Positions 16,872 to 47,249 of a stretch of DNA of 50,682 nt are shown here, piece after piece. The translations under genes were made by a program, and so were the position numbers. How positions within the stretch are numbered: the stretch's first letter is position 1; every line of letters starts with the position of its first letter. Under the pieces are notes generated by a model, which was given only the letters and a program-made list of their open reading frames with translations, was not told where the DNA came from and searched no databases. Source of the DNA: a virus (taxonomy: Duplodnaviria; Caudoviricetes); IMG/VR virus record IMGVR_UViG_3300031953_000022, positions 1-50,682 of that record; one strand, given 5' to 3'.

Positions 16872-17273
16872 TTACTTTACAACTGGATTTATTACTTTTA
16901 TTTCAAGTTCTTTTTCGGTTAAAGCGTAAACGATGTTTTGTAAAGTGTGAATGTATAATTAAATACATTCGGTATTAGTGGTATCTTCATTATTGTAAGT
17001 GATTAATTCAAAGCCATCTGTTACAGGATTAAATCCGAAAACATCTTCATCTGGAAGGCAAAAAACTCCGTATTCATTAATAAGTCCAAGCTTTAATAAC
17101 CATTCTTCATTTAATGAAAGCCCCGTAAATTGGAACAAGTCAATCCAAATTTCTTCATCTGTTTCAGGAATAAAAACAATTACCCCGCCTGAATGTATTT
17201 CTCTGACTATACATAAAACCCCGTCAAGATCAATGTAATTTCCAATTCTAAGTTCGTTCGCTTGTAATTCCAT
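16872..17273 (-). pseudogene. Conserved Bacteroidota-phage hypothetical gene with in-frame TAA
   Basis: ANELRIGNY N-terminus; the family-type C-terminal motif YIHTLQNIVYALTEKELEI lies in frame after the TAA at 16961-16959. Confidence 0.65.
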
Positions 17274-17557
17274 TAGTCAAGGGGCTTTAATTCGTGAGTT
17301 GAATCGGTTTCTTTTTTTATCATAGGGGCAAAATTGCTTTTAGATATAATCTCTTCATAAACGAAAATTTTAGATTCTAAAATTCCAAGTTTCTCATCAT
17401 GATCATCTAGCAAGTGCTTTCTGATTATTTGCTCAATAATTACCCTTGCTTCTTTATCAATAGCATCGGTGTCGTAATTTCCTATATTACTGGATGCCTT
17501 AGATATCCTTTTGCTGAATAATTCATTCAATAAATCAGTTAGTTTATTTTCTTTCAT
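17273..17557 (-). CDS. Hypothetical protein
   Basis: 94 aa, coupled to neighbours. Confidence 0.7.
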   Translation of the reverse strand: MKENKLTDLLNELFSKRISKASSNIGNYDTDAIDKEARVIIEQIIRKHLLDDHDEKLGILESKIFVYEEIISKSNFAPMIKKETDSTHELKPLD

Positions 17558-17560
17558 TAG

Positions 17561-17797
17561 TCAAGGGGTGTTTGGTTTATCTACAATTGTCCAATTCCAT
17601 TTTTTGGCTATCTTAATCAATTCAGCTTTAGTATTTCTCCCTTTGACTGATACATATTTATTTCCGCTTTCGTGAATCCAATAGATATGCCATTTTAAAT
17701 TACCTAGATACTCAATATACTGTTCTTTTCCAACCAAAATATCTCCATAAGGGAGGAACATTACACGTGTTTCCATAATCTTATCTTTACTCATCAC
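17561..17797 (-). CDS. Hypothetical protein
   Basis: 78 aa ORF in tandem cluster. Confidence 0.65.
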   Translation of the reverse strand: MMSKDKIMETRVMFLPYGDILVGKEQYIEYLGNLKWHIYWIHESGNKYVSVKGRNTKAELIKIAKKWNWTIVDKPNTP

Positions 17798-17960
17798 TGT
17801 CCTTTTTTATTTTGTATTTCCCCAGGATCTTCATTACGGTTTTCTTTATGAAATCAACTTTAGATATCGGAACTTTAAATGAAACTGATTTAGTAGGTTC
17901 TGAATATTGTGGTTTGGGTCCTGATCCGGGACGTTTGCCACCTCTTTTATCTTTGGTCAT
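17787..17960 (-). CDS. Small DNA-binding protein (RGGKRPGSG motif plus ribbon-helix-helix-like segment)
   Basis: Own translation MTKDKRGGKRPGSGPKPQYSEPTKSVSFKVPISKVDFIRKTVMKIL..., 57 aa, below track cutoff. Confidence 0.7.
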   Translation of the reverse strand: MTKDKRGGKRPGSGPKPQYSEPTKSVSFKVPISKVDFIKKTVMKILGKYKIKKDSDE

Positions 17961-18003
17961 TTGTTAGTTTTGTGTTTTTATAATTAGTTGTAAACAATAA
18001 AAA

Positions 18004-18195
18004 TTAAGCATTTTTGTACTTGGTTTCTATTGCCCTTAAACGCCTCAATATTTCCTTCAATTCTTTAGTACTACCCATACAACATTCTAACTTTTCATTA
18101 ACCTCTTCCCAAGCGTTTCCAATGGCTTGTATTTCTTTTTCAGTTATATTTATTCTCATAATTTTTAAAGATTTATAACAACGTATATAAATCAT
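18004..18195 (-). CDS. Hypothetical protein
   Basis: ORF track; true start may be the internal MRINIT. Confidence 0.55.
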   Translation of the reverse strand: MIYIRCYKSLKIMRINITEKEIQAIGNAWEEVNEKLECCMGSTKELKEILRRLRAIETKYKNA

Positions 18196-18383
18196 ATAAC
18201 ACTACCATAGGTTTTCCTACTGTAATTGCAATAAGGGTTTTCGCAAAAATCAATTTTTTTATCTGTTAAAAGCCTTAATGCTTTACCACATTTCGGGCAT
18301 TTTTTATCAATATTCATAGACTTTAAATCTTCATCCCAAGAATCGTAAAGCCTTTGTAATTGTTCTTCTTCTATGCAGCTCAT
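18192..18383 (-). CDS. Zinc-ribbon protein
   Basis: CPKCG...FCENPYCNY. Confidence 0.7.
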   Translation of the reverse strand: MSCIEEEQLQRLYDSWDEDLKSMNIDKKCPKCGKALRLLTDKKIDFCENPYCNYSRKTYGSVI

Positions 18384-18385
18384 AA

Positions 18386-18757
18386 TTATTCTATTATAGT
18401 TTCAATTGCTCGTTTCATAATTAGCCTTGCGGTTTCTTTGTTGCTTGTCATAGATTTGTGATAACCGCAGATAATTTCAATATCTAAGTCTTTGCATTTT
18501 ATAGAAACTAAATTTCTAATTACAGAAACTTGTTGTCCGCTAAGTTTGGAAGTATCAACCATTTTCACCTCACAGTTATCTAATAATCCTTGTCTTGATT
18601 TTTCAAAATTCTCCTGTCTATCGTTTTCTATTTTAAGGTTTTTAATAATTTCAATTGTCTGAATTACACCTTCATAATAAGCTTCGTGAGCCTTACTTTC
18701 TTTTCGAGTTTCATAAGCCTGTTTTCTAAAATCTTCTATTTCTTTCTCTAATTTCAT
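18386..18757 (-). CDS. Hypothetical protein
   Basis: 123 aa ORF in tandem cluster. Confidence 0.65.
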   Translation of the reverse strand: MKLEKEIEDFRKQAYETRKESKAHEAYYEGVIQTIEIIKNLKIENDRQENFEKSRQGLLDNCEVKMVDTSKLSGQQVSVIRNLVSIKCKDLDIEIICGYHKSMTSNKETARLIMKRAIETIIE

Positions 18758-18761
18758 AATA

Positions 18762-18950
18762 TTATATTTTAATTAATCCTGCTCTTAGCATTCTTATTTC
18801 ATTGTCTTTTTCTTCTAATACCAATCTTACAAGTGTAGCGGGTGCAGTTCCTTCCTGACCGTGTTTATCTATCATTTCCGCAGATAAGTCTAGTTCATTA
18901 ACTACATCTTCAAGCATATTTTCTAATTCTGGTTTTGTCCAACAACTCAT
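18762..18950 (-). CDS. Hypothetical protein
   Basis: 62 aa; first gene after a TATATTTA promoter near 18980. Confidence 0.65.
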   Translation of the reverse strand: MSCWTKPELENMLEDVVNELDLSAEMIDKHGQEGTAPATLVRLVLEEKDNEIRMLRAGLIKI

Positions 18951-19015
18951 TTTATTTGTTTTAAAGTGTTAATTTCCAGTAAATATACACCTATTTAATG
19001 AATAAGAAAACCTTT

Positions 19016-19552
19016 TCAAATAATAATTAAAGAAAGTTCCTTATAAACCTCCAAAGTAGCCTTACAATCTCCAAGCGCCCTATGCCTATCCAAGTGATCT
19101 ATCTTAAAATGATCACAAACACTAGATAGTTTGTTGCAGGAAAGGTTTAGGTGCTTTCTGGATAGTTCCAGGGTATCTTCAAGTTCATAATAAAAGTTGT
19201 GTTGCGTGAATCTGTCAAACAAATATTCAATCCTGCGAAAATCAAATAATTTAATGTTGTGCCCGATAATTGAGGTAACATTATTTGCAATTAACATTTC
19301 ATTGATTGCCTCACAAACCAAAGTGACAATTTCGCCCGCTTCAATCTCTTCCATACTTATCCCGTGAATTGCCATGGCATCTTCTTTATAACTTACCAAT
19401 TCATCAGAATCGGGCCGGGTGTAAGGTTTTATAATGAAGGAACGCTCTAAAACTACTTCTAGTTCGTCGTTTACAATTAAGATCCCTATTTCACAAACTG
19501 CGTTTTTTGTTATGCTGAAGCCGCCAGTTTCCAAATCCAGTACTGCTTTCAT
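19016..19552 (-). CDS. DEDDh 3'-5' exonuclease (DnaQ-like)
   Basis: DLETGG, GHNIKLFD, HRALGD motifs. Confidence 0.9.
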   Translation of the reverse strand: MKAVLDLETGGFSITKNAVCEIGILIVNDELEVVLERSFIIKPYTRPDSDELVSYKEDAMAIHGISMEEIEAGEIVTLVCEAINEMLIANNVTSIIGHNIKLFDFRRIEYLFDRFTQHNFYYELEDTLELSRKHLNLSCNKLSSVCDHFKIDHLDRHRALGDCKATLEVYKELSLIII

Positions 19553-19666
19553 CTATTTTTTATTTAAAGTTCTACTTAATTTCTCTTGATGTGATTCTTT
19601 TTTGCATCGGCAAAGATTGGTATTGTACCTCTTTTTGCATTTCGGACATTGCTCTTCTTTGTTCAT
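19553..19666 (-). CDS. Tiny Cys-rich protein
   Basis: Own translation MNKEEQCPKCKKRYNTNLCRCKK..., 37 aa, fills the gap exactly. Confidence 0.5.
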   Translation of the reverse strand: MNKEEQCPKCKKRYNTNLCRCKKESHQEKLSRTLNKK

Positions 19667-19893
19667 TTGATTGTTTTTATTATTTTATCGGAATTGTTGA
19701 AGCAGAAACTAATAAACTTAGCGTGTTTTAAAGCGTTTGACCTTTCTATTTCGGTCATTATTTCAGCCCCTTCGATTACTAGATAAGGTATTCTAGCAAT
19801 CTTGTATTTTGCGCCTAATCCAGATCCAATAATATTCCAGACGTTTTTGCTCTCGCTGTGTTTTACATCTGTAGTTATGTTTGGGTTTTCCAT
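19663..19893 (-). CDS. Hypothetical protein
   Basis: 76 aa ORF in cluster. Confidence 0.65.
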   Translation of the reverse strand: MENPNITTDVKHSESKNVWNIIGSGLGAKYKIARIPYLVIEGAEIMTEIERSNALKHAKFISFCFNNSDKIIKTIK

Positions 19894-19900
19894 AAGTAAA

Positions 19901-20116
19901 CTATTTGTCCTTATTTAATTCAGCTTCTAGTTCCTCTAATTCCTCAATAGCGATTCTTAGTAGTTTAGCGGCTAATTTAATTTCACTCCTTTGGTAAAGG
20001 TTTATTTCCACATCCTTTAACAAAGTTTCAGCGTTTAAAATCCTTCTTTCTTTCATTGGGGTTAATGGACCTAATCCGTGATCTAAAGTTTTAAATTTTT
20101 TGTTGAATAATTCCAT
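19901..20116 (-). CDS. Hypothetical protein
   Basis: 71 aa ORF in cluster. Confidence 0.6.
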   Translation of the reverse strand: MELFNKKFKTLDHGLGPLTPMKERRILNAETLLKDVEINLYQRSEIKLAAKLLRIAIEELEELEAELNKDK

Positions 20117-20143
20117 AAGTAAACCTGTAAGTTGATTTTTAAT

Positions 20144-20320
20144 TTAAAATTTCCGTTCCCGGTATGTAATTTTATAGAATTTCACCCCTTTATAGGTAAA
20201 AGGAAATTTCTTGTTTCGTAAAGTGTAGTAGCTAAACTCAGAATGATTCTTGCAAATTTCAGTTAAAGAACCCCAAACCTCAATTTCATCACCTTTCTGC
20301 AGGATAATTATTTGCTTCAT
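20144..20320 (-). CDS. Small putative DNA-binding protein
   Basis: MKQIIILQKGDEIEVWGSLTEICKNH.FSYYTL...; TATCTTTA element directly upstream. Confidence 0.55.
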   Translation of the reverse strand: MKQIIILQKGDEIEVWGSLTEICKNHSEFSYYTLRNKKFPFTYKGVKFYKITYRERKF

Positions 20321-20375
20321 AATAGTAAAGATACGCATTATCTTTCCATTGAAACAAAAATATATAATTTTAAAA

Positions 20376-20840
20376 TTAAGATTTAACCTTTGTCTTGTTT
20401 TTCAAATAAAGCGCCTTGTTTTCACAATCTATAATGGCTTTTCCTGCCTTTAAAACATCCGCCCCTATAATTCCGTGAACTTTTTCGGCATTGTGGTTTA
20501 CAAGGGCCTCGTTTACGTGTGAAAGATCAAACAACACTAAGTTAATTTTTTTCTTTTCCCAGCCTTTTATTTCAATACTGTTTTGCCGGGCAATTTGCGT
20601 GATCATATTTGCAGCCCCGGCACCTGCGGCCAGAATTTCGCTTTCTTCAACCGATAAATTAAAATGGTTTACGCTGTCAAAGTCTATGCAGGAACTAGAA
20701 GCCCCGGTATCGAGAATAAAATTTCCTTCTATTCTGTTGATTTTCGCTTTTACCTCGAAATGATTGGTAATAGTGCGCTTCAGGCTTATGCGGTGATAGC
20801 CTTTTTCCTTTAGAATACTCCTTAAAGTTCCTTTTTCCAT
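20376..20840 (-). CDS. Retropepsin-like aspartic protease (host-type)
   Basis: FILDTGASSS catalytic motif and GIIGAD motif; probable ATG at 20840. Confidence 0.9.
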   Translation of the reverse strand: MEKGTLRSILKEKGYHRISLKRTITNHFEVKAKINRIEGNFILDTGASSSCIDFDSVNHFNLSVEESEILAAGAGAANMITQIARQNSIEIKGWEKKKINLVLFDLSHVNEALVNHNAEKVHGIIGADVLKAGKAIIDCENKALYLKNKTKVKS

Positions 20841-20851
20841 GGTAGATAATT

Positions 20852-22001
20852 TTAACCCCAAAGACTTTTGGCGAGGCATACATAACGGACCGCTGCCAGT
20901 TCATCAGGTTCGTGTCCATCAGGTTCAGGGACTATTTTCCCATTGTGATCTATCTTCCAAAACCAACTCTCGCACCCGGTCTTGATCCCGGTGCTTCTTT
21001 TTGTGATCTTCAGGTTATAACTTCGCATTCGTTTAATCCCTGTAGCTACACTGCCCGCGCCTTTCTTGACCCCTCTGGCATTGTACCCGTGTTTTCTTAA
21101 ATCTACCAACTCAGTCTTACCGGAGCTGTCCCCTATGATCATCCAGCCTTTAGGGAATCCAATTTCTTCCATTTTATCAACAATTGCCATTCTTTCAGCT
21201 CCTTGTATCTTTTCCGGCATCAGGTTGTTTTCACTAAATCGCTGATCTAAATAGAGATTGGTGCCTTCCACGTAAACATCTATCAGGCAGGTTGGGTCTG
21301 GACTTTGCCCAAAATCCATTCCTGAAGGGATTCTTTTTGCCGTCTCAGGTACTTCGTCTACCATTTCAAAGGAATAGATCCTGCGGTCGCTGTAAGTTCC
21401 AGTTAGGCCTAAACCGTAAACCCGGTACCATTGGGTATTTTCCTTTCTGGATTCAATGTACCTTACCTCGTTTTCCGGGCATAATTCGTTATCCAAAAAA
21501 GTAACCACGATCTTTTCGCAGTCGTCCCTAGGCTCCAGTTCGGTGTGCGCCCAGAATTCAAAGTCGGGGTTGAAATCAATGAACACTTCTTTTGATCTGG
21601 AAATGTAAGGCTCCGCAGCGGCCCATCCTATCTTGTTCCCTTCGTTTATGTATAGAATTTGCCTTCTCTTGGATTTACCAGCGTGGGGCTTATGATCTGC
21701 TATGTACCTGAACTGTATCTTGCTTTTTCCCCAGGTCAAAACCTTCTCCTGTTTATTGTAATAATCGTAGAGGTTTAATCCGCTCCACTGAAATATATCT
21801 TCATAATCAGTCAGGATACCATCCTTAATATTATCGTAGGTATCGCTTAGAATGGTGATAATCCTGGCATCCTGTCTCTCTAAAAGATGAATGGCCAATG
21901 CGTAGTTCTTTCCTGCTCCTAGGTCATTGACCCCCCTGAATCAATTTCAGGGGGGCTTTCATTGCTTTTATTTTATAATACGTTGTGGTGAGGCCTATCA
22001 T
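20852..22001 (-). CDS. terL: Terminase large subunit (PBSX-type), frame interrupted at 21926-21920
   Basis: ATG 22001 overlaps terS stop; IQGGQ*/GAGKN Walker A halves; YINEGN Walker B; DFNP; GMDFGQSPDPT nuclease motif. Confidence 0.9.
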
Positions 22002-22510
22002 TTGTTTTTCCTTACGTCTACTACTTGGATTGTTGGGGCGGTTTTTTGGTCATTGTCAATTTTATAACCTCCTAAATGTTTCATCAACTCAACAATATTG
22101 GCCCGCCTGTTTGAGGCTTTGACTTTTTTTGTAGTGGTGACTACCATTCCGTCTACCGTGAATTCATCACTATCCAAAGATTCTATTGCAAGCCGGGTTT
22201 CTTTTGGGATTTCATGAATAGGCTTTAACTTTCCGTTTTCATCATAACAATCTGCAATATCAAATCTTGCCATTGAAGCGAGTAAAGAAACGCACTCGTC
22301 TACAGTGATTTTGTTGCGCTCTGCTGCCTCTTTTTGAAGTTCTGATACCCTCGCCCTAATCTCCCCGTTAGCGTACAGCTCATAGGCTTTATTGTTAATG
22401 GTTTCGGGTTTCATTTTTTCAGCATTATAAGCAAGTCTGTAAGCTTCGGATTTGTTCCCGGTCTTCATATACTCCTGGCAGAAATTTTCTTGCTTTGCGG
22501 TCAATCCCAT
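21998..22510 (-). CDS. terS: Terminase small subunit
   Basis: LTAKQENFCQEY...GNKSEAYRLAY; ELMKHLG. Confidence 0.92.
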   Translation of the reverse strand: MGLTAKQENFCQEYMKTGNKSEAYRLAYNAEKMKPETINNKAYELYANGEIRARVSELQKEAAERNKITVDECVSLLASMARFDIADCYDENGKLKPIHEIPKETRLAIESLDSDEFTVDGMVVTTTKKVKASNRRANIVELMKHLGGYKIDNDQKTAPTIQVVDVRKNK

Positions 22511-31296: not shown

Positions 31297-32043
31297 TTAA
31301 AATATTGTTAGTTGGGATTGGCGTTGAATTAGTCTTTTCTTGCCGTTATCGAAATGAGTTTTTGAAATTTCGCAACCATAGAAATCAATATTAAATTTCA
31401 AAGAAGAAATAGCGTCTGACATACTTCCTAGATGAGTGCTTAAGACTTTATCTCCATCATGGGTGTAGTTTTTAAATTGCCAGTCGTAAAGTTGAATTGG
31501 TTTTTCTGTAGGATGTATTTTTTTCTGGTTCAATTTTTTATTTCCTTGCTGAATATGGCCTTCAAGCATAGATTTACCTTGAAGCATTCCGTTCCACATA
31601 AATTTGTAAATTACTGTAGGTTTATCAAATGAAGTCCAGGCCAATTCGTAATCATTAAAAGAAGATACGCCATTACATTTATCCCAAATAATCCAGCCTT
31701 TAGGATTTTCTTTAATGAATTTATTTATCTCTTCACCTCTTGGAGTTTTAAAGGGTTTTCCAATAAAATCAAAATAATTAGCACCCCAAATAATTTGATT
31801 TACAGATACTCTTTTAACATCATTAAACCATTTTTCGTCAGGCAAATTCCAAGTTGCTGTAATAGGATAATCCCTTCTTTTTACATTTATTTTGCTAACC
31901 TCATTTCCGTAAAATTTCCTTTTTTCCGGGCCACTAAAATAAGGGGGGTCTGCGTCCGTTAGATTAAAATAGTTATCTGGATAACGTGCCATAAGTTGCA
32001 TGTTATCTTCGTTGGTTATTGTCATATCTATAATTTTAATCAA
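31297..32043 (-). CDS. DNA methyltransferase (N6A/N4C, beta class), orphan
   Basis: DPPY, IIWGANYF, IHPTEKP, THLGSMS motifs. Confidence 0.88.
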   Translation of the reverse strand: MIKIIDMTITNEDNMQLMARYPDNYFNLTDADPPYFSGPEKRKFYGNEVSKINVKRRDYPITATWNLPDEKWFNDVKRVSVNQIIWGANYFDFIGKPFKTPRGEEINKFIKENPKGWIIWDKCNGVSSFNDYELAWTSFDKPTVIYKFMWNGMLQGKSMLEGHIQQGNKKLNQKKIHPTEKPIQLYDWQFKNYTHDGDKVLSTHLGSMSDAISSLKFNIDFYGCEISKTHFDNGKKRLIQRQSQLTIF

Positions 32044-32689
32044 AAAGCGTTAATGGAAATTTCTCAATTAATACAGGAACTTCAACGTGAATTCCTTTGG
32101 GTTTCAATTCCTGTTTTTTCTCAGTAAAAATGTATCGTTTGCATTCTTCAATAGACATAGGATGAACTCCTAAAAGGGTTTTGGGCATCCATATTCTCCA
32201 ACCTCCGTAAATTTCAAGGGATAGGCAGTTCATATGAATTACAACCCCTGACATCCCAAACATCACATAATTAAGAACGGACATAAGGCAACATCTTTTA
32301 TCCAAATCCTGGGCGACATAGGTGAATTTAAAGCGGTTGTTTGGACTTTTCATTGCGTGAGCTATTAGGTTTCGGGCGCTTCCACAACTCGGATCGTTTA
32401 CACTCATTCTCTCTCCTTCCCGGTCGTCATTCGTGAACATTGCCATTAAATTACAGAGGGAAACAGGTGTGAAAAATTGCCCGAATTTTGCGCTCCGTCC
32501 GTATTTGTTCTGGACTTTTACCATTTTCAGGTTTATTGGGATTCCCATTTTTCTCAAATCGAGAATTCTGGCTTTAGGGTGTAATATTCCGGTCTCAGAA
32601 AGGATTTGTCTTACAGAAATATCTTTGTTGGTTAAAAGCTCTCTGAAGACTTCCTGTAGCTGCGTTGTGGGTTGTGGGAGATTTTTTAT
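32036..32689 (-). CDS. Winged-HTH / N-6 DNA methylase-like chimera (start uncertain)
   Basis: GQFFTP and NDPSCGS; frame open upstream to an ATA at 32689 encoding HPKARILDLRKMG...VQNKYG. Confidence 0.6.
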   Translation of the reverse strand: MKNLPQPTTQLQEVFRELLTNKDISVRQILSETGILHPKARILDLRKMGIPINLKMVKVQNKYGRSAKFGQFFTPVSLCNLMAMFTNDDREGERMSVNDPSCGSARNLIAHAMKSPNNRFKFTYVAQDLDKRCCLMSVLNYVMFGMSGVVIHMNCLSLEIYGGWRIWMPKTLLGVHPMSIEECKRYIFTEKKQELKPKGIHVEVPVLIEKFPLTLFD

Positions 32690-34124: not shown

Positions 34125-34301
34125 TTATTCTGTTTTAAATTGTGAAAAGTTTATTTGAAAAAACCTATACACAAACCCCGGTTTCTTATCCAGTTTCAGT
34201 GCCTTTCCATAAGTCATAACTGACTTATAAGCTTTGCCGTTTTTCAGGGCAATAACTTCAATCTGTGTCTCCGGTGCCAGGCCAATACTATCTCTTGCCA
34301 A
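34125..34301 (-). CDS. Small hypothetical protein
   Basis: Own translation from TTG: MARDSIGLAPETQIEVIALKNGKAYK..., 58 aa. Confidence 0.55.
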   Translation of the reverse strand: MARDSIGLAPETQIEVIALKNGKAYKSVMTYGKALKLDKKPGFVYRFFQINFSQFKTE

Positions 34302-34854
34302 TTACGATATCGTAAACTTTCTTAGTGATCTCAATATCGTAAAAGCCGTCGTGCGCTTTTTCCTCTTCAATCTCAATCCCTAAATGTTTAGCAACGGTCA
34401 TTAGCTTGAAATTAGGCATTGATGCGCGTTCGTTTTTCAAATATTCCGCAGCTAAAACCATTACGTCAATGTTATTGGACCAGAAATAAGAACCGAAATA
34501 ATTGTCCCCGCATTGTTTGAAAAATGCCCTCACAAAAGCATTGTCAAAGTGAGCATTATAGGCGCAAAAGAAAAACTTGTCCTGTCTGTCGAATTTCTTC
34601 ACATACTTGGAAAGTATCTTTGTGAGTTGCGCGTAAGATTCGCTGCGGTGTGGATAAGCCATTACATCTTCCAGTTTCAGTCCTCCAATTGCCAGGGCTT
34701 CATCTTCGATTTTCCCTTTTTCGTGGGGTTTTATCTTGAAGTCAAAGGATTCTTTGAGTTCGTTATCGATATAAACCCCGCCTGAGATTTGATGAACGGA
34801 ATGTTGCCAGTGGTTTACGCCTGTGGTTTCAACGTCAATAAATACTTGTTTCAT
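34288..34854 (-). CDS. DEDDh 3'-5' exonuclease
   Basis: DVETTG, AYNAHFD, AHDGFYD. Confidence 0.9.
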   Translation of the reverse strand: MKQVFIDVETTGVNHWQHSVHQISGGVYIDNELKESFDFKIKPHEKGKIEDEALAIGGLKLEDVMAYPHRSESYAQLTKILSKYVKKFDRQDKFFFCAYNAHFDNAFVRAFFKQCGDNYFGSYFWSNNIDVMVLAAEYLKNERASMPNFKLMTVAKHLGIEIEEEKAHDGFYDIEITKKVYDIVIGKR

Positions 34855-42900: not shown

Positions 42901-44115
42901 TCATTCCCACGCCTTATTAATCTGATCTATCACAGATTTTTGGGAAGTTTTTTTATATTTCTGCAAAGTCTGTACATTCCGGATTCCGGTAACTTTCATA
43001 ATTATATGGTCCGGCAGTCCCTTTTCTGAAGAAAGGGTTATAAAAGTCCTTCGGGCTGTATGGCTTGAAACCATTTTCCATTTAGGAATATAATTCACTT
43101 TTTTTTCATTGCCCCGGTAAACCGTTTCTTTTATTTCCTGGTCCATTCCCGCGGCTTTGCAAATTGCCTGGATATGCGGGTTGAATTTTTGGCTACTGAT
43201 CTCTGGCAATTCCCAGTCGTATTTATCCAGTAAATTCCTTAATTTCCCATGCAAAGGGATAAATGATTCCTGCTCCGTTTTTTCGGCCCGCTTGATAATA
43301 AGATCTCCCTGCACGTCCGATTTTTCGAATACGGAATAATCTGAAAACCGCTGGCCGGAATAAACCCCGATTAAAAAAACATCCCGAACCTTCTCTTTTT
43401 GCCCGGTAAGATTCATTATTTCCAAGGCGACAACTTCCTCTGTGGTCAGGTGAACATCGTCGGCCTGGTATTTCTTTACCTTGTTCTTAGGCAAATCGTT
43501 GTTGTGGTACTTCCCTTTAGCCCAAATTAAGAAGGTAAACAGGAAATTGATGTTACGGTGCAGCGTGTTATCGTTATGCGGCTTAAAAGGCTTTATTTTA
43601 ATGGTTCTTAAAAATCCTGAATAAGAATCTAACCAATCTTCGTCGATATCGTTGAATTGAATTTCCTTTTTATTTCTTTGAAACGCTTCCAATTTTGCCT
43701 TTAAATTGCTGTATTTCTGGTTCCAGGTATGCGATTGAGCGCCGGATCTGTTCTTACTGTCAATAAATTCCTGAAGGGTTTCGATAAAATTAAGCTCCTG
43801 TTTTTTCTCGTGTTTAAACTGATCTTCAAAAACTTGCTTTAGTCCGGATCTGGTAAGCGGTTTATTTTCTTCCAGGGACCTTCTCAATTCCGATTCCAAA
43901 AGTTCAGAATACTGCGTTAGAATAGAAGACAAATGTTTGTGCTGAATTCCTTTATTTCCTCTCAGGATTTTTGGCGCCCGGTTTCCAAAATCCCAGAATT
44001 CAGATTCAATTTTCTGCCCGGTAGAATATTTGAAATTCTTTTTTTCAAATTTCAGGTAGTGAATTATATTAATTCTGCTTATTTTTGCGGTCGGGTTTTC
44101 AAGGTAGAAATACAT
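42901..44115 (-). CDS. int: Tyrosine integrase
   Basis: SGQRFSD, K, SSHTARRTF, TG(I), Y catalytic motifs; N-terminal arm-binding and SAM-like domains. Confidence 0.95.
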   Translation of the reverse strand: MYFYLENPTAKISRINIIHYLKFEKKNFKYSTGQKIESEFWDFGNRAPKILRGNKGIQHKHLSSILTQYSELLESELRRSLEENKPLTRSGLKQVFEDQFKHEKKQELNFIETLQEFIDSKNRSGAQSHTWNQKYSNLKAKLEAFQRNKKEIQFNDIDEDWLDSYSGFLRTIKIKPFKPHNDNTLHRNINFLFTFLIWAKGKYHNNDLPKNKVKKYQADDVHLTTEEVVALEIMNLTGQKEKVRDVFLIGVYSGQRFSDYSVFEKSDVQGDLIIKRAEKTEQESFIPLHGKLRNLLDKYDWELPEISSQKFNPHIQAICKAAGMDQEIKETVYRGNEKKVNYIPKWKMVSSHTARRTFITLSSEKGLPDHIIMKVTGIRNVQTLQKYKKTSQKSVIDQINKAWE

Positions 44116-44120
44116 GGCGT

Positions 44121-44382
44121 TTACTTTCCGCTAATATAATTCACGGAATGAAATACGGAAAGTAAAACCTTATTTAATTTCCTATTGAAAGTAAGTTTGT
44201 GGATAAGAAATAAATATTATACCTTTGAAGTATCAATAAAATAAGGGTTTTTAGCTCTAAAGTTCTTTTAAATAAATATCATAAGGATAAGTTAAATTTT
44301 GTAGCGGGGGTCTCATACTCTCCGCAATAAACCCAGTAAACACAAGGGTTTCAAAATTTTACGGAAAGTATTACGGAAAGTA
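44121..44382. other. attP: tRNA 3'-end-like core flanked by arm-type repeats
   Basis: Core TCTCATACTCTCCGCA 44311-44326; TACGGAAAGTA at 44154, 44360 and 44372; inverted copy 44121-44130. Confidence 0.7.
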
Positions 44383-44414
44383 AAAGCCGCTTCATTAATT
44401 TGGGGCGGCTTTTT
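44382..44414 (+). terminator. Intrinsic terminator downstream of att core
   Basis: AAAAGCCGCTTCA...TGGGGCGGCTTTTT. Confidence 0.8.
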
Positions 44415-45107: not shown

Positions 45108-45374
45108 ATGTCGAACTACAGCACATCAGCCAATATGGCCTCAGACCTAATCTTTCAATTCATCAAAGCCCGGATGAAGGAAAAGAAGATCACCCAGGAG
45201 GAACTATCGGACCGCATTGGTATCGATAAATCTACCTTGATCCGAAATTTCCAAAAGAAAACCGAAATGTCATTATCTACTTATCTAAAAATATGCGGGG
45301 CTTTGGAGTTGCGGCCTTACCTGGTACCGGCAGAAATTGATACTTCAAAATTCGAGTTCTTGCATTTCAATTAA
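45108..45374 (+). CDS. XRE-family HTH regulator
   Basis: KKITQEELSDRIGIDKSTLIR...SLSTYLKICGAL. Confidence 0.88.
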   Translation: MSNYSTSANMASDLIFQFIKARMKEKKITQEELSDRIGIDKSTLIRNFQKKTEMSLSTYLKICGALELRPYLVPAEIDTSKFEFLHFN

Positions 45375-45739
45375 ATAGACCCCACAACAAATCCGCTCCC
45401 AAATGCGGCTATTGTAGCCAAAACCCAAACAAACCAATTAGATCTTGGTTTCCGGGCTTTTTCGGCTTCATATTGGGTCTGTAGAATAGCGTAGTTTTTA
45501 TTAGTAAGAGCAACTATCATTTCTTTATCGCTAACCTCATTTTTTAAATTAGAAACAAGTTCTATTTGACTCAATATAATAACCTCTGAGGAGCGTAAAT
45601 CAACCTTAAGGCTTTCTACACGTTGAGCGTTTCTAATTGCTTCTTTTGCTTGATCAGGGCTTATTTGGATCTGGGTAAAACCTATTGAAGAGTTTAGAAA
45701 TACTATCAATATCGTTAATATGGTCAATAGTCGTATCAT
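45371..45739 (-). CDS. Spanin-like lysis protein (signal, coiled coil, C-terminal TM)
   Basis: Topology and position after endolysin; overlaps the previous gene. Confidence 0.5.
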   Translation of the reverse strand: MIRLLTILTILIVFLNSSIGFTQIQISPDQAKEAIRNAQRVESLKVDLRSSEVIILSQIELVSNLKNEVSDKEMIVALTNKNYAILQTQYEAEKARKPRSNWFVWVLATIAAFGSGFVVGSI

Positions 45740-46019
45740 ATTTTGGTTCTTTAGGTTTGCTGGTCCAAATTTTTAAAAGGCTGTCAATGGATTTACCTTG
45801 CTTTTCAATTAATTCCTTTTTACTGTTTTTGATTAATTGGTCAATCTGTATTATATTCTCATTCTTTTGCGCTTCCAAATTTTCATCCAGTAAATCATAA
45901 CTCTTTTTTAAGGCTTTCAATTCTGCATTGGCCTGAATTTTATCTACCAAGGTAAATATGGTCAATGCTATCAATCCTACCAGGAGAATAATGTTCCAGA
46001 TTTCGGGTTTCAGTTTCAT
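45654..46019 (-). CDS. i-spanin-like protein
   Basis: N-terminal TM plus coiled coil, directly after lysozyme. Confidence 0.55.
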   Translation of the reverse strand: MKLKPEIWNIILLVGLIALTIFTLVDKIQANAELKALKKSYDLLDENLEAQKNENIIQIDQLIKNSKKELIEKQGKSIDSLLKIWTSKPKEPKYDTTIDHINDIDSISKLFNRFYPDPNKP

Positions 46020-46021
46020 AA

Positions 46022-46549
46022 TTAAATACTCAAATTATATTCCCGATCATAATTTTTCCCGATAAAAATTTCGAATTCATCATTCCTTCGATATTGAAGC
46101 CCTTTCAGATACACCCCGTTTGCTGTGATATATTTTGTGGTGAACCAATGTTTGATCTTGGAAATGTGAGCCTTGGCATTAACCAGGCTATAGAGTGTAC
46201 TGGAGAAACCGCAATTAAAAGCGTGGGAAACAAGCGCGTCAAATTGATGTTGGCTTACTTCAACTCTCAATCTGTTATTTACTCCCCTAACTGTAGCTTG
46301 CAGATCTATTTCTAACTGCCTATCAGCATCGGCAACCGTACTAATTGCGGAATAAGTCAATACACTTGCAATGGTCGGATATTGCTTCATGTGCAATTTC
46401 TTGCCATTTCTAAGCATCAAATGTCCCCATCCTTCAGTCCAGTAGCCTACCGGATCTGGTTTTGGTTGCAGTCCAATTTTTCTTAAATCCCCATCATGCA
46501 GGGATTCAAAAATTTTAATGAAGATGTAGATTTTTGCTGAAGGATGCAT
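46022..46549 (-). CDS. Endolysin, GH24 lysozyme
   Basis: FES...PDPVGYWTEGWGH, QHQFDALVSHAFNCG, GLQYRRNDE; ATG 46549. Confidence 0.9.
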   Translation of the reverse strand: MHPSAKIYIFIKIFESLHDGDLRKIGLQPKPDPVGYWTEGWGHLMLRNGKKLHMKQYPTIASVLTYSAISTVADADRQLEIDLQATVRGVNNRLRVEVSQHQFDALVSHAFNCGFSSTLYSLVNAKAHISKIKHWFTTKYITANGVYLKGLQYRRNDEFEIFIGKNYDREYNLSI

Positions 46550-46553
46550 AATT

Positions 46554-47249
46554 TTAAGATTCATTAGGGTTGGAAATATCGGTTTCATTTTCGTCGTTTT
46601 CGTCATATATCGGATTCCCGTCTGCAGGGGTTTTGGCTCCAAAGAATTTAAAGATCCTGGGTTCAAAAATTCCTTCCACAATTTTAAATATGGATGCTTT
46701 CCTTCCGTATAAATATTCTGAATTTTCGCCAATAGATTTAAATTCATAGTACCAGAATAATGCAATCGGGACCCGGATAAGTATTTCGGTAGTGAGATAC
46801 AATGCTTTGATTTCAATGCCTGCACCTTCAACGCTGTCAGACATCAAAGCTTTTGCAACCAACAAATAAGTGAGGAAGGCAAAGCACTTGAAGAACACAA
46901 AATAAGTTCGCTTAAAATCGAATTTATGAGCCTCCCATTTTCGGATATTGATGCGATATTGGACCGTATTTACTTTATGTTTTTGAGCTTGGGCAAAGAA
47001 AACCCTTGATTTCTGTAAGTTTTTTGAGATCCCAAATGCGGTGTTGATAAATACGGTTCCCATCACCAAGATCAAAACTAGCGGAGTAGTTCCAAGCATT
47101 GTTTCCGTACTAAGAAATTCAGTGACTACAACCCCTCCTGTAATAGCTACGGACATCCAACTAACCGATCCAAAATTAGACATTGAAAGCTGGTATATCC
47201 CGGTTATCCAGGAACTAAATGCGCAAAAAACAAAACTTGACTTAATCAT
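46554..47249 (-). CDS. Holin-like membrane protein
   Basis: Several TMs; YEFKSIGEN motif; directly before endolysin. Confidence 0.65.
   Translation of the reverse strand: MIKSSFVFCAFSSWITGIYQLSMSNFGSVSWMSVAITGGVVVTEFLSTETMLGTTPLVLILVMGTVFINTAFGISKNLQKSRVFFAQAQKHKVNTVQYRINIRKWEAHKFDFKRTYFVFFKCFAFLTYLLVAKALMSDSVEGAGIEIKALYLTTEILIRVPIALFWYYEFKSIGENSEYLYGRKASIFKIVEGIFEPRIFKFFGAKTPADGNPIYDENDENETDISNPNES

Follow-up and report, generated by a model that had tools for sequence, protein, structure and literature searches.

How a phage could make its large terminase (TerL) from a gene that is interrupted within its ATP-binding motif is the question raised by the locus analysed here. The window, i.e. 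the whole 50.7-kb record, carries terL on the minus strand, where the ATG at 22001 overlaps the TGA stop of terS and the first ORF ends after 25 codons with QGGQ. It is followed by a spacer, TGACCTA, that itself starts with a stop, after which the coding sequence continues from GAGKN onward, in the +1 frame relative to the first ORF, up to the stop at 20852. The break lies inside Walker A, directly after Gln25, exactly where a preliminary description of this DNA had placed it. The elements concerned, and their counterparts in a related contig (L061), are the following.

21998..22510, minus strand: terS, small terminase (PF03592, E 2.7e-23; phrog_51)
21927..22001, minus strand: terL ORF1, 25 codons that cover the first helix, the first beta-strand of the ATPase and Walker A as far as its third residue (G-G-Q)
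21930..21956, minus strand: 27-nt hairpin with 10 Watson-Crick pairs plus G-U and a 5-nt loop, whose last base directly precedes the Gln codon
21927..21929, minus strand: Gln25 codon CAA, putative take-off codon (CAG in L061)
21920..21926, minus strand: 7-nt coding gap TGACCTA, with the stop UGA-C and CUA (21922-21920) as putative landing triplet
20852..21919, minus strand: terL ORF2, 355 codons from GAGKN, remaining ATPase and nuclease domain
L061, 644-649: gap TGACTT, 6 nt and in frame, between Gln (CAG) and GAGKN
L061, 614-640: 27-nt counterpart of the hairpin, in the same register as in the window, with five structure-keeping differences

The gene product has the characteristics of the large terminase of tailed phages, namely a P-loop ATPase and an RNase H-like nuclease encoded downstream of terS. 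ORF2 matches terL families, a profile built from 105 sequences matches Sf6 gp2 and SPP1 G2P, and a full-length relative aligned to Sf6 gp2 puts GGQGAGKN on GGRGSGKS and Gln25 on Arg24, a position listed as part of Walker A in Table 1 of PMC6379665. In a structural model of the L061 protein (TGA read as Trp) the ORF1 part forms a helix (7-13) and a strand (19-24), corresponding to the first helix and the first ATPase strand, and the fold search with this model returned D6E and Sf6 TerL as top matches. The earlier label 'PBSX-type' can be kept as 'PBSX-like' at most: L061 read through its stop and three relatives score 45-63 bits against TIGR01547 (PBSX-family TerL), for which the cut-off is 105, and ORF2 of the window does not match it. 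The record holds a single terL match and, being estimated as 72% complete, does not strictly exclude a second one. Genes for head, tail, lysis, replication, repressor and integrase are all present; portal, protease, capsid, tape measure, integrase, repressor and endolysin are each encoded by a single ORF, in agreement with the earlier remark that the other virion genes look intact. The host is likely a member of the Flavobacteriaceae, because the nearest named relatives are Polaribacter phages (54.8%) and Muricauda and Polaribacter proteins.

An assembly error, formerly held out as a real alternative, is unlikely at the window junction, because the contigs of three runs carry the site unchanged. 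X1, X3 and X4, which may be the source samples and whose contigs drop rare variants, each gave a single contig over 20500-23000 with 0 other letters and 0 gaps, at a word depth of 28.5, 86.4 and 152.8 at the terL site, where X6 gave no cover. The runs that cover the window in full are brine metagenomes. The junction in a 51,738-bp contig (L063) is identical to that of the window, and four runs with a small share, assembled against the window at 80% likeness, yielded 0 contigs across the junction.

Of the two gap-bearing DNAs in the analysis, the second is L061, the closest relative with DNA and a 5' end (78% amino acid identity to the window TerL), a single 1,729-bp contig that was checked as assembled. 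It is broken at the same codon and its gap starts with the same TGAC, but it measures 6 nt versus 7 nt, so the gap length is not conserved in the way the preliminary description had envisaged. A reading of this TGA as tryptophan (genetic code 4) was ruled out: all 10 Trp codons of L061 are TGG, and the TGA is therefore a stop. Within the window, UGA-C ends 0 of the 55 normal genes; 10 genes end in TGA and all of these read TGAT or TGAA. Between the window and L061, pS and pN are 0.68 and 0.10 for ORF1 and 0.84 and 0.136 for ORF2, values that point to conservation of both ORFs at the protein level. The saturated synonymous sites date the genes and not the gap; the substitutions within the gap-and-hairpin cassette, to judge from these two sequences, show that it was retained during divergence.

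The hairpin directly 5' of the break had been described as perfect over 10 bp, and so it is (arms 21955-21946 and 21940-21931, with a closing G-U pair), being one of only two perfect hairpins of at least 10 bp in the 50.7-kb record. Among the 5,711 stop triplets in the window the terL stop ranks second for an abutting 5' hairpin, and no second hairpin-plus-stop site stood out there, the other top matches being mostly terminator-like hairpins as judged by eye. The 30 nt before the Gln codon fold with -20.9 kcal/mol in the window and -20.2 kcal/mol in L061, versus a best of -7.1 and a median of -0.8 kcal/mol for the same region in 94 unique continuous loci; when the same peptides are recoded with synonymous codons, the observed energies are reached in 5 and 1 of 10,000 draws, respectively. 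Where the window hairpin has G-U, C-G and, at the loop edge, A/A, that of L061 has U-A, U-G and G-C; pairing is preserved or extended at all five differing bases, so that the stop and a hairpin with compensatory changes, which the preliminary description had suggested looking for in relatives, are both found in L061. The stem needs Pro-Leu-Lys, and PL[K/R] occurs at that place in 0 of the 202 family proteins as called; outside the hairpin codons ORF1 resembles its continuous relatives. Among the loci compared, only the two gap genes have the hairpin. A competing palindrome around the stop (GGUCA-A-UGACC), to which attention had also been drawn, could form only with a loop of 1 nt and is not conserved in L061. 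Because the same break and hairpin recur in L061 and synonymous recoding rarely folds as well, split and hairpin together are more than chance, and the terL split is confirmed as a real, conserved feature.

Conservation bears directly on the view that terL is dead or crippled, or that the two gaps are coincidental, with the hairpin serving another end, for instance as a stop for antisense transcription. It is improbable that two genes were knocked out independently at one and the same codon and both came to have TGAC there and hairpins that co-vary, and the G-U pairs favour the mRNA strand: the L061 stem has -19.9 on that strand versus -16.0 on the other. The site is furthermore invariant in three runs, and the integrase lies mid-record with flanking repeats, as in an excised genome. 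On the other side, the gap is rare and patchy, the nearest relatives per segment are continuous, the window hairpin read on the plus strand has a terminator-like score, and an unrelated break is seen to truncate another family member (P0137/P0143). We consider a non-functional gene or coincidence quite unlikely.

If the gene is functional, the family indicates what the product should look like. The P-loop motif has exactly the same spacing in 187 of the 202 family proteins and another spacing in none; of the 15 without the motif, eight are N-truncated, two are fragments, one has a variant motif, two form the L061 cluster and two belong to the window itself. Because both halves are needed and the spacing of the motif is fixed in the family, the gap is probably skipped exactly. 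A short programmed bypass that would yield QGGQ-GAGKN, as originally proposed, is also our best reading in the light of L061 and the family spacing. That terL undergoes some kind of productive recoding, all forms taken together, we hold to be very likely; for the specific form in which a hairpin-pushed ribosome bypasses the gap at UGA-C with little or no landing match, and full-length TerL with an exact P-loop results, our confidence is moderate.

In such a bypass the ribosome would stall at the UGA, UGA-C being a site at which RF2 is expected to be slow, and the peptidyl-tRNA-Gln would release CAA or CAG during the stall. When the P site holds Gln and the A site UGA, the 3' arm of the hairpin, unwound in decoding, would occupy the E site and the exit channel and would re-pair as the mRNA exits, a re-formation that requires forward movement. 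Refolding would in this manner push the ribosome over 6-7 bases, until 6-7 nt lie between the end of the stem and the P site; the tRNA would come to rest, only weakly paired, on CUA or CUU, and decoding would resume at the Gly codon. The landing position would be set mainly by the geometry of the hairpin and less by a codon match. A distance of 6-7 nt before the P site is about where the Shine-Dalgarno (SD) helix sits. Precedents for the individual steps have been described: when RF2 is absent, 70S ribosomes slip forward more readily on mRNA with a refolding hairpin upstream (PMC6321510), and pairing of the exiting mRNA has been proposed as a forward driver in T4 gene 60 (bioRxiv 2024.12.09.627546).

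Landing is the weak step of the bypass reading. The take-off codon and landing triplet agree at two of three positions in the window (CAA/CUA) and at one of three in L061 (CAG/CUU), so the partial match on which a CAA-to-CUA hop had been based is not conserved. A matched hop from the preceding Gly codon to the next one was considered and rejected, since it would cost two residues of the P-loop and would start with a sense codon in the A site. As to what would push the ribosome, a G-rich run is present 5' of the gap as a candidate internal SD; it is forced by Gln-Gly-Gly, and similar AGGGGG-like runs, which had been taken as a prfB-like context, also occur in continuous relatives (e.g. L006, L040 and L098). 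Bacteroidia ribosomes are reported to sequester the anti-SD and to largely ignore SD sequences (PMC10798248). On such ribosomes a hairpin would more plausibly supply the push than would a G-run of this kind.

Both genes have a Leu codon immediately before Gly, CUA in the window and CUU in L061, with only the last base different, a pattern equally compatible with translation of this triplet and as such a point against a bypass. It is the starting point of the main rival, a shorter slip in which the Leu codon is decoded: a +1 shift in the window, adding Asp-Leu, combined with UGA readthrough in L061, or else with an L061 gap that really has 7 nt and lost one base in assembly, leaving a P-loop longer by one or two residues. 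The +1 frame is indeed open across the window gap, one substitution and one base more or less in a CC run are all that separates the two gaps, stimulation of +1 shifts at UGA by upstream hairpins has been shown (PMC6321510), and the L061 model with TGA as Trp is still predicted to fold as TerL; a dip in pLDDT (77 for residues 21-30) in the model with the two-residue insert was given no weight. Such a slip would nonetheless give a motif whose spacing is seen in 0 of 202 family proteins and whose insertion pattern is seen in 0 of 292 proteins, and tRNA-Gln would presumably re-pair poorly with AAU or AGU. L061 is moreover in frame as assembled, which would require two different mechanisms, and with TGG for all its Trp codons it is no TGA=Trp genome. 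More weight would fall on the shorter slip if L061 did lose a base in assembly; as it stands, we regard it as unlikely.

The comparison with the prfB +1 site (CUU-UGA-C with an upstream SD; PMC10798248, PMC6321510) leads in the same direction. Shared with prfB, as described there, are the UGA-C in the A site, the G-rich run upstream and competition with RF2. Unlike prfB, terL has no re-pairable +1 codon for tRNA-Gln (CAA-U, CAG-U) and its G-run is locked in a hairpin and also present in continuous relatives; a prfB-type shift, which the preliminary description had considered, cannot explain the in-frame gap of L061, again unless that contig lost a base.

A skip at the RNA level, whereby the 6-7 bases are removed (as a micro-intron, cut out and ligated in trans) or are passed over by an RNA polymerase pushed by the hairpin, would restore the exact spacing for either gap length without any codon match, and a G+C-rich hairpin that ends a few bases before the skip may be said to resemble the geometry of a terminator. 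Yet the gap is not enclosed by the hairpin, and the fact that the gap opens with an in-frame stop, in the weak context UGA-C, points to the ribosome. The window furthermore gave 0 Rfam matches at the gathering threshold (no group I/II intron) and no tRNA, and no RNA ligase was matched among the 83 ORFs scanned. We know of no such RNA-level micro-skip element in bacteria, and consider this explanation very unlikely. Hardly probable at all is the last one, in which the two ORFs are made as separate, assembling chains through termination and re-initiation, or in which a truncated TerL starts from the TTG/ATG seven codons downstream. Gene callers do start there (348 aa and 347 aa), but this start lies past the catalytic Lys of GAGKN, neither gene has an earlier in-frame ATG, GTG or TTG after the break, and the chain would have to be broken within the P-loop.

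As for translational bypass in general, very few genes are firmly established to use it in nature, and matched codons carry much of the weight in current models. The closest parallel is the terL of Streptomyces phage phiHau3, described with two short coding gaps of 10 nt each (PMC10732093); in the DNA, which we checked, both are indeed 10 nt, UUA-first and codon-matched, and at the g7/g8 site a hairpin of -21.2 runs up to the last base in front of the take-off codon. The supplement of that paper lists an 8-nt matched gap in the terL of prophage StrepC and a 7-nt gap in that of an S. catenulae prophage, with a landing triplet that matches at two of three positions, and bypass of Hau3 g6/7 with UAA for UUA was detected in E. 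coli by mass spectrometry (PMC10732093). As in Hau3, the gene affected is the essential terL, a short non-coding block (here 7 and 6 nt, in Walker A) splits a terL motif that does not tolerate insertions (the first Hau3 gap, in a G-W-G-K motif, would also be in Walker A), a slow A-site codon follows directly upon the take-off codon, a strong hairpin abuts the latter (as at g7/g8) and a G-rich run is part of the 3' arm. Gap length varies at one site in the Hau3-type group as well, and the partial landing match of S. catenulae equals that of the window. Unlike in Hau3, the trigger in both the window and L061 is a true stop, UGA-C, and not a hungry rare UUA; the gaps are 7 and 6 nt, one of them in frame; and TerL is of the Sf6/SPP1/PBSX-like lineage, with a likely Flavobacteriaceae host. 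Landing is matched in gene 60, at both Hau3 sites and in StrepC, as opposed to two of three positions in the window and one in L061. By analogy the terL gap may thus work like the Hau3 type while lacking two of its defining features, the UUA trigger and the matched landing, and it can be viewed as a stop-first variant of short-gap bypass in another TerL lineage and host phylum.

T4 gene 60, as described in the sources consulted (bioRxiv 2022.08.31.505936, bioRxiv 2024.12.09.627546, PMC5009743), likewise has a stop directly after the take-off codon and a 5' stem-loop proposed to push the ribosome forward. That stem-loop is 9 nt upstream, however, and the gap measures 50 nt, with matched GGA codons, a take-off stem-loop inside it and the MobA endonuclease adjoining. 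A gene 60-like cassette was rejected for terL, for which no 50-nt gap, take-off stem-loop, matched GGA or adjacent endonuclease was found: among the 83 ORFs there is no HNH or GIY-YIG family match next to terL, and the flanking ORF has 125 aa. In E. coli, synthetic 'stop hops' have been described in which a single amino acid is encoded by 9 nt, and the parts of a 2016 review consulted state that no natural in-frame stop hop was known (PMC5009743). The Gln codon, UGA and CUU of L061 are also 9 nt and would give one residue, so that its 6-nt form, if the bypass is true, would be a natural in-frame stop hop; the synthetic hops differ in having matched codons, a low level and no stimulator, according to the same source. 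No Bacteroidota terL with a gap triggered by a stop was encountered in a literature search, outside which most subscription papers fell.

How the gap is distributed was examined at the DNA level. A usable 5' end was available for 58 of 59 viral loci, and all 58 are continuous (51-60% identity); among 77 further loci, many of which duplicate viral contigs of the first set, 65 are continuous, 10 have too little 5' sequence, one is the window's own contig and one (L061) is broken. The terL of the cultured Polaribacter phages Danklef and Freya (54.8%) is continuous. Over residues 1-110 the continuous P0007 is 84% identical to the window and the continuous P0023 91% to L061. For the segment that follows the gap, the tree joins the window to the continuous P0007 and P0016, and L061 to the continuous P0023, a split that ORF1 follows; window and L061 are sisters in the C-terminal segment only (the segment trees have 45 rows, and the second is a quick one). 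The TerL family as a whole is strongly mosaic, its ATPase and nuclease segments giving different trees (P0002-P0124), and even one 90% cluster can hold differing N-terminal segments (P0139 versus P0085). Since the family is mosaic and the nearest N-segment relatives are continuous, the gap is patchy, and either has been lost repeatedly or is a small cassette that moved by recombination.

Pattern scans of viral contigs and genome searches did not find a third gap DNA in this TerL family. One scan of the viral contigs for other inserts at the motif gave 0 hits; another gave 23 hits, none of which is terL by tblastn, a further one 6 hits, none of this family, and 135 hits (31 + 104 loci) did not match the TerL profile at E 0.01. 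Three of the 6 hits belong to a different terminase, with the pattern across two frames, and were taken as chance. The genome contigs contained 1 relative, which is continuous; among the class genomes 1 of 151 matched, the centre genome itself, with no further gap; and among the family genomes 1 of 401 has a relative (the same genome, found twice), continuous and with another N-terminus. At the protein level, the eight N-truncated proteins, in five clusters (P0006, P0008, P0085/P0138, P0029/P0125 and P0103/P0141), are candidates for gap genes. P0008, P0085 and P0138 start at the Met of L061's called protein and group with L061 in the N-segment tree, a likeness that is suggestive only. P0029 and P0125 share one 90% cluster with the full-length P0124; if their truncation is a gap, gain or loss would be recent. 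N-truncated 'TerL' calls in databases may in this way hide recoded genes.

If the bypass reading is true, terL is likely read in a rare way, by ribosomes hopping over a spacer, in a phylum whose ribosomes mostly ignore SD sequences. Two natural alleles, with different gap length and frame and one hairpin, constitute a tiny, testable cassette, and the question it poses is whether the landing site can be determined, with no codon match, by mRNA that refolds in the wake of the ribosome. We tentatively propose, as a possibility that is itself rather doubtful, a minimal cassette of about 36 nt (hairpin, Gln codon, UGA-C and 2-3 bases) in which the hairpin alone would measure the hop, with neither matched landing nor SD pairing and in either frame, and which would gate an essential enzyme on RF2 and move between terL alleles by recombination. 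Its purpose is a matter of speculation: it may be a tolerated insert that alters the target of a homing element, or a throttle on the TerL level through competition with RF2. Distant TerL relatives (P0179, P0226 and P0254) carry inteins in or at Walker A, two of them with LAGLIDADG homing endonuclease domains, and the Walker A site of TerL is on this ground to be seen as a homing target; that the gap would protect terL against homing cleavage is speculation.

Several other features of the record deserve mention. The integrase (42901-44115) is situated mid-record, between lysis and early genes, and beside it the stretch 44042-44385 has two 28-nt direct repeats and an inverted repeat around a short core, which look like the uncut attP of an excised genome, in keeping with the attP noted in the preliminary description. 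Two adjacent DNA methyltransferase-like ORFs (31297-32557, minus strand) show no stop-first gap by eye, and the lysis region (45371-47249, minus strand) has long overlapping ORFs (45371-45739 with 45654-46019, and 46022-46831 with 46554-47249). Between terL and portal there are about 4 kb of small ORFs (16959-20338, minus strand), at a place where phage Freya has one small gene; this interval includes a 3'-5' exonuclease (19016-19552), and a second member of the same PHROG is encoded at 34288-34854. Directly behind terL, finally, a retropepsin-like aspartyl protease (20376-20879, minus strand) is 50-52% identical to genes in 3 of the 151 class genomes and was likely acquired from a host.
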